Assembly: GCA_964016885.1 (NCBI GenBank)
Contig: OZ024740.1
Coordinates: forward strand, 125,984,001 to 126,048,000
Direction: 5' to 3'
From: Eledone cirrhosa
Taxonomy: Eukaryota
Length of the DNA: 64,000 nt
The position numbers were made by a program, and so were the translations under genes. A model generated the notes under the pieces. It saw only the letters and a program-made list of their open reading frames with translations, was not told the DNA's origin and did no database searches. Positions 18,831 through 63,690 of this stretch are shown piece after piece (positions within the stretch are counted from its first letter, which is position 1; each line of letters opens with the position of its first letter).

Positions 18831-19225
18831 GAAGTTGAAGACATGACTCTGAAGCCTAGCAATTTCGGCTTGTATTCGGCAAGCCAATATTATAGTAACC
18901 GAATAAAAGCTGAAATCACGAAGCATCGCATTTAGGGTTTCACTTTCGGGTATACTCACTCTGCTTCTTCCTGTGCATGGAGTACTCCCCCCCTCCCCAA
19001 ATATATATATATATATATAGGTATCGAGAGAGAGAAGAAAATGGAAAGATGGTTGATACATATATTTAGTTGCCAATAATTTATGCATGTGTGCTCCATA
19101 CTCGTGCCTACAGGGTTAAATATTAGAGGCGTCAATATTTAGTGGGCGAGAGAAAATAAGCAGAGCGATTATAAAGGAAATGAATACAAAGAGTTTAAAA
19201 CCGTTAAAACATGTTTATATAATAG

Positions 19226-19268
19226 TGCACCTACGTACGTTTCGCCCTGAGCGGATTTATCAAGGGCA
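19226..19268 (-). ncRNA. Minimal type I hammerhead, U3-A8 variant
   Basis: Minus: TGCCC-TTGATAA-ATCCGCTCAGGGC-GAAA-C-GTAC-G-TA-GGTGCA. Confidence 0.7.
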
Positions 19269-19444
19269 TGGAAAGCAAAATAATGTTCAATGTTCAAACC
19301 CAGGAGGGAATTCACGGGAGTAACTCTGGCCGGTGTTCAAGCAATCTGTCCCATGTGGATTTTTATGCCTGTTCATATGCTGGTGTTTAACATCTTTATA
19401 TTATGTGTAAATTATGTGTATATATATATATATATAATAAAAGT

Positions 19445-20087
19445 ATATATAATAAAAGTATGTGTACCCACATGCAATTAATACACACAGGGATACAAGT
19501 ATAGTCCGACCATGTGCCAGTGTGGTTCAATGGCAAGTTAATAATTAACAAGTCAGAACATATAAAATCAAGGGAAAGCAAATAAAGAAAAGAATTTAAA
19601 ATAAATTATAAAAAATTCACTGTACTTACTATATGTGCCTACACCGCGGTTTCAAATCCCAAACGAATAGATAATCCGGGCGGATATCCATTGCGAAGGA
19701 GATTATCGTCAGAAGGCATTTCTCTACCGGAGAATATAAAATTCTCGAGTTAAAAATTTCAAACTGGCGCCATTCCAAACTTCCTCAGAATGAGAGTAAA
19801 TGAATGATAAAGCAGTTTTTGGTATGGCACCGTGTGCAAAGGCGAGAACACGGTAGACAAGTTAATCCTGTAATGCTAAAAATAGCAGCCACTCAGACGA
19901 CTATAGGTTTCTCTACCATTGCGGAGAATAATAATAAAAGTATGTGACCCTACATTAAAACACACAGGGATACAAGTATTGTCCGACCATATGCCAGCAA
20001 AGTTCCCAATGGTACATATAGTAAGTACAGTGAATTTTTTAAAATTTATTAAAAATGTTTTTCTTTATTTGATTTCCCTTGATTTTA
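19445..20087 (-). mobile_element. Non-coding PLE remnant with direct and inverted terminal segments
   Basis: Direct repeat 19448-19520/19931-19998 and inverted repeat 19563-19637/20012-20087; degenerate HHR at 19636-19718 (-); (TA)n flanks. Confidence 0.7.
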
Positions 20088-20128
20088 TATATATATATAT
20101 ATATATATATATATATATATATATATAT

Positions 20129-20337
20129 AGTACGTTATTCCGGGTTGAATCGGAGGTAACCACAGTAAGTAAGGTACTCAATACATTGCAGAGTATAAAA
20201 GTTTTAATATAGATGAGATTCTACAGGACTAGAACTGTTTCATTCTTTAGAAATCATCAGGAATCTCAGAGATTCCTGATGATTTCTAAAGAATGAAACA
20301 GTTCTAGTCCTGTAGAATCTCATCTATATTAAAACTT
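20129..20337. mobile_element. Miniature palindromic PLE derivative: two back-to-back hammerheads plus tail
   Basis: Perfect palindrome 20199-20337 centred on A20268, unique ~70-bp tail on the left, (TA)n on both sides. Confidence 0.85.
20269..20321 (+). ncRNA. Type I hammerhead (mirror copy at 20215-20267 on minus strand)
   Basis: GAGATTC-CTGATGA-TTTCTAAAGAAT-GAAA-CAG-TTCTAGTC-CTG-TA-GAATCTC: 7-bp stem I, intact core, GUA triplet. Confidence 0.85.
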
Positions 20338-59899: not shown

Positions 59900-60650
59900 A
59901 CGCGCTTTATCGAGTAAAGTTACTCAAAAACCCATTGAAGAACCCCATTTCGACCGCTTGAATCGTATTCTTTCGGTCATTACCCAAGATTCATGACCAT
60001 AGGTATGTGTTGGCACGAAGACCGAGTTAAAGATAGCGAGTTTGACCCTTACACGTATCTCTTTCTCTTGATGACCGAATTCTGAAGCTGGCACATTACT
60101 GCACCAAATCCTGCAATTCTTGCACTTAATTAAACCCCCTACCTCCCACCAGTTGTGAATATGGCCCCGATATTCTTGAACTTATCCACCTGCTTTAGTA
60201 GAACTCCACTCCCATGTTGAGTGTCCTCCCTTTGCAGGATTCCTAGATATGATGAACGTCTCAGTTTTTCCAGCTCTGATTTTCATTCCTGCCGCGTAGC
60301 ACGTGGCATCAGGCCTATCATGTGCATGTCGGAGATCAACATCTAACGAGTTAAGTATTACCATGTCGCCTGCCAATTCTAGACGACTAATCTTACACCC
60401 ACCAGTCTCGATACCACTTTCAATATGACTGGACATGTCAATCATTTCCATGAAGATAATAAACAGTAGCGGTGGCAGTACGCACACTTGGAGGAGTGCG
60501 ACACCCGCATTAAAGTGTTTTCACTTTGAAGCCTTTATCTGAACACAAATACTAGGGCATTTGTATAGAGACTTCAGGGCAAGAAAAAGCTGTCCATCGA
60601 TTCTTTATTCCTGCAGAACCTCCCTAAACAGGTCCCTTTGAACGCAGTCA
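59900..60650 (-). mobile_element. RTE-clade LINE RT fragment
   Basis: 'CVLPPLLFIIFME...ISRLELAGDMVIL...GMKI..KTE' and 'SVFVPTHTYGHESWVMTER'. Confidence 0.8.
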
Positions 60651-60947
60651 TATGCACACAAACACTCATTCAGGCACACACACACACACATACACACGTA
60701 TATGTATATATATATATGTATAGGGGCGTGTAATGTGTGTGTATATGTGTGTGCACGAGAGAGATGTAGTAGCCACTGGCTTTCTATCTATCAAACGTTT
60801 TAGAACACGTGTTTCATCCGATGAATTTTTCAACTCCCATATGGTTATAGTGTAGAAGATCCTTCGGGTGAAACATGTGTTCTCAACAATGGTTTGCTAA
60901 TTTGTTGTGGAACTCTATACCAAAAAATTTCAAGAATAAAGGATTTA

Positions 60948-61104
60948 AATATATATATATTTATATATATATATATATATATATATATATATATATATAT
61001 ATATATATATATATATATATATATATATATATATATATATATTTATATATATATATATATATATATATATATATATATATATATATATATATATACATAT
61101 ATAT
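60948..61104. repeat. Long (TA)n microsatellite
   Basis: Direct run. Confidence 0.95.
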
Positions 61105-63472
61105 ACTACCCTAAGTATTGAGTACTCTGGTACGTTACGGTCCATCTGCTTCCTTACCACACTTCCTTCGTTATATATATATATATATATATATATATAG
61201 TTCAAGAATAAAGGTGTGGAACTGAACCCAGGACCATGTGGTTGTGAAGCGAACTCTCTAACCGTAAATCTATATCTATGCCTATAAAATGTACAAATGT
61301 TATGAACATTTTAGTGAAAGATAATCTGAAAGCATAATCTACGAATTGGTCATCTGAAATATTGATCCACCGAGTCATTTTGTTGTTATTAGAACATATC
61401 GTCGCGTTGTAAATATGATAAATAATACTATGTTTATGTCACAGACATTAGTTTCAGAGATATATTGGGTGGTAATTCTAACAGGTCGAAGACCTCATAA
61501 ACAATTTGAGACAGAGAACTGGATACTTTTAATGGTGTTATTATCTCGAGAAACAGTTTGCCTATCGCTGTGAGATACGATAGTTTCTGTCTAGCAATAT
61601 CTACTTCCCAACGTTGCTCGAGAGAAATATACACTTCTGATGAACGGATATAATAAGACGGCTAGCAACAGGGATATTAAAATAATGGAATATTGTAATT
61701 AAGTTATTGCCCTGAAGTAAAGAAACAGACAGACAAACAAACACATAAACAAAAAACACTAACATTCGCTTGAATATTGGAATCTCGCAACACAATTTAC
61801 TATATACTATATAATATCATTGATATTATCTTCTTATTCAATGTGTTACTTCGCTACATTCACCACTTTTAATTATTCTTTATATGGTAGTTAAATTCAG
61901 CCCGGTAAACATTTTAAGAAAAGTTCTAGTACTACAGTGCGATGGGAATTATAACCATCTTCCATTTAGCTGAAAGAACAGTACCCGAATATTTAAGCTT
62001 ATAACAATTTTATCAATGTTCTCAACTGAACACCATGTGGTAAAAATTCATTCTCGTTACCCGTGTTAATTTGATTATATACTTTAAATAAGAAAGGAAG
62101 ATGTTAGTTAGACTAATGTAACCCATATAAAACCACATGAATATCAAGCTAATATTTCAATCTTCTTGAAATATCAGCTAAATGTTCCTCAAATTAGTAT
62201 TTACTATCTTATAACAAATACAATATTCGTAACTTGCTCAAGATGAAATTATGATTGCGATTACATTAGGTTGTTCATGAATAAGCTAGCTTCATCCTGA
62301 TCGATTTTGAACAGAAAAACGAGAATAGTAACTAAATGAATAGGGGAGTTTTCAGTGGTAGTTGAAGCTTTCTAATGGGACAAGTGGTCAAAATAATTTC
62401 CAGTTTTCTTTAAGAGAAACATTATATATTTTGAATCGGTTCTCTCTGCCAATATGAAAAGACCAAGGATTACTTCAAGGAACTCAACAGTATCTGCCAA
62501 TTTATTTCAAGTTTGATAGATTTACGTTTGATTCTAATAATAATACGGTGATATAAAATGGCGCCTGCTGTCCATCCATAAGTGACATGGTTAGTTATGC
62601 GCATTATTAAAAACTTGAACTTGGAGACGTCACTGTCATTTACAACAGTAGGCTGCATAATTCTTCAATGGAACATGAAAAGCTGAATTAATGAGATACG
62701 CTTGGAGATCTTCCAACAAAATCAAAATATACTAGATTCGGAAACATGTTCGGAAGTAGGTAAGACATATCCCATTATATTTCTATACTTTTTCTTCTGA
62801 AAACACGAACAGATATATAAATGTATAGCTATACATTCAGAGTGGATACGATTTTGAAATGAATATTAATGTAGCAATAGATAGTATTATAGAGAGATAT
62901 ATCTAAGCAACTACAATACAATATATAGAAATAGCGATATATTTTGATATATTGTAACGACTCCCGTTCACCTATATTAATAGTGTCCTTCAGTTACGCG
63001 CTAGCTAACATCCTACATTTCTGTCTGTCTATCAAGTTTGAGTCGACTTTTATAAGATAAAAAGTATATTTATGTGAGAGAAAATTGAAGTATCGTCTTT
63101 ATGTAGGCTAATTCACGTTTATGTAAAGTAGATATATATAACAAAAAGTGATGAGACAATTTATGAGTTAGTTGTGCTCAACGTAGTCCATGGAGTTGTT
63201 TAACATCTTGGTGATAAGGGGATGCATTACCCATTACCGAGTATGGTGCATAGGTTTCAAAGAGTATTCCACGGAGTAATATAATATAAACAGAGACACT
63301 ATTGTATAATAAATGTTTCTTCGAACCAAAACAATTATTGCCTAGCTTTTAATGATATTCTCTCTCTCTCTCTCTCTCTCTCTCTCTCTCTCTCTCTCTC
63401 TCTCTATATATATATATATATATATATATATATATATATATATATATATATATATATATATATATATATATA

Positions 63473-63690
63473 TAATTAGAAAGGGAACAACACAATATAT
63501 AACTACTCCATTACCAAAGGTTATAACATTTTCATCCGATGAGCGAACTAGAGGTATCTTAATATAGTCTAGGGCCCTGAAACCTTTGGTAATTGAGTAG
63601 TTATTCATTGTGTTGTTCACTTTCTAATTATATAGCTCTGTATTATACATAGAACACTCTTTTTTCCTTTGCTTTTTCTTCGGAATTACT
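63473..63690 (+). mobile_element. Miniature PLE remnant with inverted arms, hammerhead and tail
   Basis: Arms 63473-63522 and 63581-63630; HHR-like motif 63531-63597 with CCGATGA core, GAAA-CC-TTT-GG-TA; sits between (TA)n and (CA)n. Confidence 0.7.

Follow-up and report, generated by a model that had tools for sequence, protein, structure and literature searches.

What fixes the two ends of a Penelope-like element (PLE) is the question raised by a 64,000-nucleotide stretch of the Eledone cirrhosa genome. Insertions of PLEs carry inverted pseudo-long terminal repeats (pLTRs) and a tail on one side, features that were noted long ago and have a single in vitro study behind them. The stretch, hereafter the window, covers positions 125,984,001 to 126,048,000 of the forward strand of contig OZ024740.1 (GenBank assembly GCA_964016885.1) and is rich in AT and microsatellites, within a genome of 3.0 Gb; its longest open reading frame (ORF), 46260-48701, encodes a PLE reverse transcriptase (RT) with a C-terminal GIY-YIG domain. 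A sequence-only reading of the window had proposed that a small bulged hairpin marks the boundary between pLTR and tail in many unrelated PLE families. Our results support this hairpin as a real, covarying and position-specific element at PLE ends, and they show that it is doubled, with a second hairpin directly beyond the long (tail) end; that reading missed both the twin arrangement and the tie of the motif to the Hydra clade. In what follows, E1 is the short end and hairpin 1 (H1) the hairpin past it, while E2 is the long end and hairpin 2 (H2) the hairpin past that.

Position, bulge and covariation of the hairpin

The hairpin has the consensus R-Y-U-C / U-N-G-A-R-Y, with 2 nt bulged out of its 3' strand and a variable spacer of 3-110 nt, and all twelve examples quoted in the sequence-only reading are present in the window, letter for letter. 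The bare descriptor matches the window 297, 126 and 43 times when the upper stem has at least 1, 2 and 3 bp, versus 293, 123 and 45 times in block shuffles, and the motif taken without regard to position carries no evidential weight. Position was examined in an unselected sample of 1.2 Mb from 11 blocks of the genome, in which unique sequence abutting a (TA)n run with an inverted mate within 15 kb was collected and the 129 cases were kept where the mate continues past the end. These fall into 58 tail clusters, of which the 50 without a member from the window served as the held-out set. The motif (upper stem of at least 2 bp) lies within 14 nt of the short end in 18.2 of the 58 clusters, compared with 1.3 in other 15-nt bins, and in 14.4 of the 50 held-out clusters versus 1.1 expected, and the enrichment near pLTR ends that the earlier reading had offered for checking is borne out in this sample. 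Measured from where the TA run starts, the offset has its mode at 6-7 nt, and after maximal extension it is 0-7 nt in 23 of 25 clusters. The bulge is specific as well: the geometry with a 2-nt 3' bulge scores 17.7, while seven other geometries reach at most 8.2.

For covariation, the 3' partner was picked by sequence alone, blind to pairing, in 32 clusters, and pairs were counted in a fixed register (a MAFFT alignment of 24 twin regions misaligned H2). The five stem pairs are Watson-Crick in 21, 25, 22, 21 and 17 clusters, against permutation means of 11.3, 17.8, 12.2, 11.0 and 7.8 (P from 0.006 to 0.0001, values that are optimistic for a reason given below); the covariation of the basal pairs claimed from the window thus holds in a test that is neutral to pairing.

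Two hairpins and two ends

The main element of the window shows how the two ends differ. Its direct 3' arm (pLTR), 48502-52472 (+), stops at E1, 4 nt before the expected start of H1, and is followed by (TA)n; its inverted arm, 42273-46333 (-), holds H1 (42325-42405, -; 4 nt from the copy end, fold z = -4.1) together with a tail of about 137 nt and stops at E2, 5 nt before H2. The ORF of this copy is on the E1 arm. The H2 of the main family is visible in tandem copies alone, such as locus L005, at whose tandem junction it begins 5 nt after the long end. This hairpin (L005:1280-1395) closes a loop of about 100 nt with a TA-rich GT...AG stretch inside, which on its letters could be a 5'-UTR (5' untranslated region) intron whose splicing would shorten the hairpin. 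In clusters 0, 3, 9, 14, 20 and 57 and in the family of the hairpin at 53146, H2 lies 6-12 nt after the long-end junction, where extensions past long ends were counted only with a family-matching tail, as low-complexity anchors gave spurious ones. The claim that the hairpins mark the boundary between pLTR and tail is therefore right for the H1s, and not for the two at 53513 and 41871, which are H2s and come after the long end. The twin hairpins sit between a hammerhead and the ORF, 100-290 nt upstream of the latter in tandem copies.

The ends of copies agree with this layout. Thirteen copies of the main family end at E1, 18 at E2 and 3 elsewhere, while 26 were scored as read-through, 8 of which are E2 ends overrun by BLAST; a third end inside the loop of H2 was considered and rejected, being a BLAST overrun between TA runs. 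Inverted insertions have one end of each kind, as a tail-bearing mate is present for 118 of 122 E1-ended arms. Either arm can be the longer one: among inverted repeats with a large spacer (hand de-duplicated from 45 rows) the longer arm is that of E1 in 15 cases and the tail-bearing one in 16, with 1 undecided, and among the 34 short inverted repeats, counted after 25 of 59 rows were dropped for a reference that is itself palindromic, the E1 arm is longer in 14, the tail arm in 10, and the two are equal in 10. TA-compatible microhomology of at least 3 nt is present at the junctions of 60% of 25 hairpin clusters, compared with 12% in the null, and weaker TA-compatible pairing is also seen in clusters without a hairpin; such junctions suggest a brief pairing of primer and template.

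Several H2 clusters consist of tandem units, about 400-560 nt long and without an ORF, in which both hairpins are kept. Of the 7 such clusters traced further, 4 have a long arm that runs on to the E1 of the next unit, as does the 41871 family. Tandem arrays of a unit of about 468 nt, in both orientations, also occur in the C1 block of the genome (about positions 81700-95000 of L031-L050) and belong to a hairpin-less family.

The twin layout extends to other organisms. An alignment of 51 relatives led to 78 loci in marine metagenomes; 64 with upstream sequence were examined and 51 have at least 235 nt upstream. Per 150-nt interval, these 51 loci have two or more hairpins in 27 cases, one in 14 and none in 10, with two hairpins in 1.4-1.7% of controls; other bulge sizes give two hairpins at 1-3 loci. 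Spacing between the twins is 54-83 nt, and the hammerhead core precedes them by 42-67 nt. Of 20 informative copy ends, 14 are located -1 to 6 nt before a hairpin (7.6% expected). The basal helix is nearly always GCTC/GAGC, then ACT. Among 65 distinct candidates, 63 have a Watson-Crick first upper pair (45 C-G and 18 U-A; 36.4 when permuted). By eye, the published Hydra-2_Amil consensus also has such a hairpin in its tail at the 3' end, GCTC-TACAC..GTGTA-TT-GAGC, behind its hammerhead.

Some further observations were made on these loci. ACT stands directly 3' of the hairpin in 58 of 75 candidates at loci L151-L228, a conserved single-stranded flank that may be read by a protein. The upper stem starts more often with U-A in H1 and with C-G in H2 (33 of 35). 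One Hydra-like PLE protein (P0088) is labelled as coming from a gammaproteobacterial metagenome-assembled genome, probably through eukaryotic contamination of the bin.

What the hairpins may do

The explanation that we prefer, with a probability of roughly two in three, is that each hairpin binds the RT-endonuclease of its element on the RNA and positions the start of reverse transcription just 5' of itself, copies ending 0-8 nt before one hairpin or the other. It takes as its basis the conservation, the covariation, the twin layout, the positions of the ends and the one-of-each pairing described above; action at the level of RNA, binding by protein, initiation rather than processing, and the presence of two protein units are what we infer from them. 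At a (TA)n target the endonuclease would cut each of the two strands, and from the resulting pair of 3' ends two protein units, each on its own hairpin, would prime two cDNAs; TA-like pairing of 3-6 nt between primer and template would help. A cDNA begun at H1 would give the short arm, one begun at H2 would copy through H1 and give the tail-bearing arm, and the two would join head to head via microhomology, the tail then being the distance between H1 and H2, that is, between the two starts. ORF-less units that keep both hairpins could be mobilised in trans. Because H2 is absent from tail-ended arms, it would act on the template side, and because either arm can be longer, both arms behave as RNA-derived cDNAs.

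The precedent for this is Poseidon_Ac: its RT starts at the two tail ends in vitro, each strand of the target is cut and extended, and a dimer has been predicted (Frangieh et al. 2024, PMC11167929; the papers cited here are drawn on in part, and what is said of them refers to those parts). Two fixed ends enclosing the tail are found here too, and the primed strands and the structured RNA at the start site would be further points in common; it is by this analogy, together with the counts of arm length, that the PLE ends described here may be seen as sites of RT initiation. Poseidon_Ac is, however, one element of another clade, and its printed RNA has, by eye, no twin bulged hairpin.

The sequence-only reading had likewise proposed a cis-element that binds the PLE RT and sets an internal initiation site, analogous to the template-boundary element (TBE) of telomerase. 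Its first part remains the best reading, at the probability just given, while the analogy does not hold. The TBE is a stop signal for synthesis on the 5' side of the template (PMC4993307); the PLE hairpins lie 3' of the copied RNA and mark its beginning, they number two, and H2 is not copied into tail-ended arms. [quoted passage not shown] In a bolder version, a twin protein-binding RNA module would load two telomerase-like RTs, and these would simultaneously prime the two ends of a single (TA)n break with short primer-template pairing, each at a fixed distance of a few bases 5' of its hairpin; we put it forward tentatively, as we judge it somewhat less than an even bet.

Several observations weigh against the preferred explanation. 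Of 114 measured inverted repeats, 83 are near-perfect palindromes with variable centres, which fold-back of a single cDNA explains more simply; two independent cDNAs give near-perfect palindromes only through annealing and trimming. Copies of one family, the ORF-less unit of 41871/41969, end about 7-11 nt before H1, 6 of the 20 metagenome copy ends are away from any hairpin, and 10 of the 51 metagenome loci have none in the interval examined. The folds are weak, z being below -3 in 1 of 11 hairpins folded, the minimum-energy folds of several hairpins adopt another register, and many second hairpins have just one upper pair. A strand test of G-U versus A-C gives 6 against 5 in the Eledone genome and 6 against 7 at the metagenome loci, near even. 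The P values are optimistic because neither the 58 clusters nor the metagenome loci are fully independent: among the clusters, six H1/H2 pairs each derive from one element and 19 is related to 35, and among the loci some families occur more than once. Initiation in Poseidon_Ac is reported inside an AC-rich loop and without homology to the target, a geometry that differs from ours (PMC11167929). Finally, RNA cleavage or resolution at the DNA level would leave identical ends.

The hairpins might mark RNA 3'-end formation, the protein of the element or a host nuclease cutting a few bases 5' of each and the RT starting at an ordinary 3' end. Genomic ends and conservation would then look just as they do under the preferred explanation; we regard this as unlikely, given that the Poseidon_Ac start was unmoved by a 3' extension of the RNA, that unprocessed RNA was the main substrate (PMC11167929), and that cleavage offers no reason for one E1 and one E2 per insertion. 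Alternatively, they could act in single-stranded cDNA or donor DNA, where the GIY-YIG domain would resolve a longer intermediate. Craig et al. attribute the tail to endonuclease-mediated resolution (PMC8557442), recognition by the Penelope endonuclease is said to depend on the tail (cited in PMC11167929), and the strand counts are near even; yet the variable spacer and the covarying upper stem speak against recognition of duplex DNA, and in vitro mapping of Poseidon_Ac found RT starts, not cuts, at the tail ends (PMC11167929), which leaves such action rather unlikely in our view.

The palindromes, for which self-priming has been proposed in PLEs (PMC3846280), are the strength of a third account, in which one cDNA from the long end folds back and copies itself, with H1 stopping the second strand as a true boundary element. 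Under it the tail arm would have to be the longer one in every case, in conflict with the arm-length counts (E1 arm longer in 15 versus 16 and in 14 versus 10) and with the ORF on the E1 arm of the window's main element, and it still has to grant H2 a role in initiation; fold-back as an obligate route is largely refuted, and the account as a whole is improbable. That the hairpins are 5'-UTR elements regulating translation, splicing or, through the element's protein, its own expression, with another cause for the nearby ends, would suit their place upstream of the ORF in tandem copies, and seems very improbable in the face of ORF-less units that keep both hairpins and of an end offset that stays sharp across family after family. 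A chance pattern chosen by eye would match the shuffle-level count of the bare descriptor, and is refuted by the held-out positional enrichment, the specificity of the bulge, the pairing-neutral covariation and the twins in other organisms.

Clade, individual hairpins and known systems

The main ORF, 46332-48701 (+), is assigned to the Hydra clade from its motifs, and its AlphaFold model has TERT as its best match in the PDB (E 5e-8). It has 57 matches at 98-100% identity in the genome, some within tandem arrays with a unit of about 6.65 kb. As the natural tandem junction in L005 shows, the window copy lacks the first 24 codons of intact copies, and its product, proposed earlier as the protein for in vitro assays, is for this reason not the one to use. 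The product carries RVRWRA at residue 11, DKT (for DKG) at 91, YRDD, CNH, CNCRNKANC at 649, YIGAT at 683 and LNKRQELIISCNH at 765, with CRLC before E and, as read from the translation, no cysteine pair with CCHH histidines. These motifs fit the definition of the Hydra clade, namely RWK-like and DKT motifs, a CxCX5C linker, CxxC and CxH around E and N, no CCHH, (TA)n targets and hammerheads (Craig et al. 2021, PMC8557442), and the main family indeed inserts into (TA)n. Its unit of about 6.65 kb differs from the size of generally under 3 kb given there, which is a tendency and not diagnostic (the unit of the metagenome relatives is about 2.4 kb), and the tails seen here are 57-174 nt versus 30-40 nt; no hairpin is described in the parts of that paper drawn on. 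Pfam gave no match for the main ORF and a weak GIY-YIG match alone for 37438-38322. The main family (window 42273-52472) also has a microsatellite-rich 3' UTR of about 3.8 kb beside the long tandem unit, and the 640 nt around its pLTR/ORF junction contain no canonical hammerhead core, an unusual state among Hydra elements.

Hairpin clusters that enclose coding sequence (5, 12, 26 and 45, and 16, a variant with a 1-nt bulge) match Hydra-type protein, and cluster 1, whose 9 inverted repeats are without the hairpin, stands behind an endonuclease with a cysteine pair in its core and a YVDD RT. Since every hairpin cluster that can be linked to a protein is Hydra-like and cluster 1 has no hairpin, the motif appears, on limited evidence, to be linked to the Hydra clade and not general to PLEs, and the description as a feature of many unrelated families has to be given up. 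Tails without a hairpin (clusters 1/47, 2, 15/27, 25/31, 6, 7, 10, 29 and 49), some of them with two fixed ends of different sequence and with other endonuclease types, may use a different start signal. The hammerhead is found below threshold in the 39184 family and as a core pattern in many relatives; Rfam at the gathering score has no match in 144 kb including the window, and at relaxed E-values the matches are mostly to miRNAs and driven by microsatellites.

For the remaining hairpins of the window, distances from the copy end are likewise given after maximal extension into the (TA)n flank. A second Hydra-like family (inverted repeat 35590-39175, tail of about 100 nt) has its H1 at 39184-39205 (+), 6 nt from the end in 5 inverted mates; upstream of this H1, 39087-39131 (+) resembles a type I hammerhead (Rfam Hammerhead_1, 29.1 bits, below the gathering score of 34, E 0.0047). 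Another H1, 31885-31930 (+), belongs to a Hydra-like element between the inverted arms 28225-31878 and is 2 nt from the end (16 rows, not de-duplicated), and 39479-39502 (+), the H1 of an abundant short family (cluster 0, whose H2 is cluster 56), is 5 nt away (23 rows, not de-duplicated). At 53146-53175 (-) the distance is 5 nt in 7 mates, with 1 mate 6 nt earlier; the H2 of this family is 53513-53530 (+), a few bases before which the window mate stops, and both are found within one natural tandem at locus L282. Three H1s are measured against a mate in the window: 20176-20194 (-), adjoining the palindrome 20194-20342, at 4-5 nt; 19525-19559 (-), with the U-A version of basal pair 2, at 0 nt; and 63635-63655 (+), with one basal mismatch, at 0 nt. 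The H1 with a long apical insert at 19093-19166 (-), related to cluster 26, is 3-4 nt from the end (3 mates), and that at 32797-32821 (+), related to cluster 40, is 3 nt from it in 2 of 3 mates. A further strict hairpin, whose upper stem has 3 bp, was seen at 18958-18983 (+); ACT comes next, and a little further on a TA run. It has no second copy in the genomic DNA sampled.

The ORF-less unit of about 520 nt is inserted at 41475-42245, with one arm stopping at E2 (42245) and the other going one unit further to E1 (about 41475). Its H2, 41871-41912 (-), is 3 nt from the end and has one basal mismatch, TCTC being a change private to this copy where most others have GCTC; its H1, 41969-41993 (-), was absent from the earlier list, and a putative hammerhead core, a pattern match alone, lies inside the unit at 41665-41713 (-). 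Apart from these elements, the window has many copies of a dispersed repeat family of about 200 nt that is probably SINE-like (637-856, 2857-2947, 5897-6231, 20793-21132, 23474-23694, 34772-35222 and 58224-58329).

In LINEs the stem-loop is located 5' of the start and is itself copied, while the epsilon of hepatitis B virus templates priming from its bulge; non-autonomous partners in which such a signal is kept are mobilised. In the PLEs, by comparison, the start would be 5' of the hairpin, and the signal is doubled and would give two ends per insertion. The 3' stem-loops of stringent LINEs and SINEs and hepatitis B epsilon are nonetheless similar in being small cis stem-loops read by their own RT (PMC5135761, PMC10534774). 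The ORF-less units of 400-560 nt resemble non-LTR retrozymes, non-autonomous PLE derivatives made up of ORF-less tandem hammerhead units that stem from pLTRs, for which the parts of the report drawn on name no cis-signal for mobilisation (bioRxiv 10.64898/2026.07.22.740005). We found no description of the motif in the literature, including passages of PMC4209133, in a search whose coverage left subscription journals largely outside, and a term search of the supplement text of PMC8557442 returned no occurrence of "stem-loop" or "hairpin".

The tail, the inverted pLTRs and the two starts were already known; for the conserved doubled hairpin our searches turned up no earlier description. Across dozens of families, in other organisms as well, this hairpin predicts where both ends of an insertion fall, give or take a few bases, and turns the question of how these ends arise into one of simple mutagenesis. 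It gives curators a rule for placing the boundaries of Hydra elements, points to a possible RNA ligand of an RT that in predicted structure matches telomerases best, and suggests a route by which ORF-less hammerhead units may be mobilised. If the twin module does load two RTs on one break, a single doubled signal would explain the tail, the head-to-head inverted repeat and the mobilisation in trans of these units, and it would amount to a portable, programmable start signal for reverse transcription.

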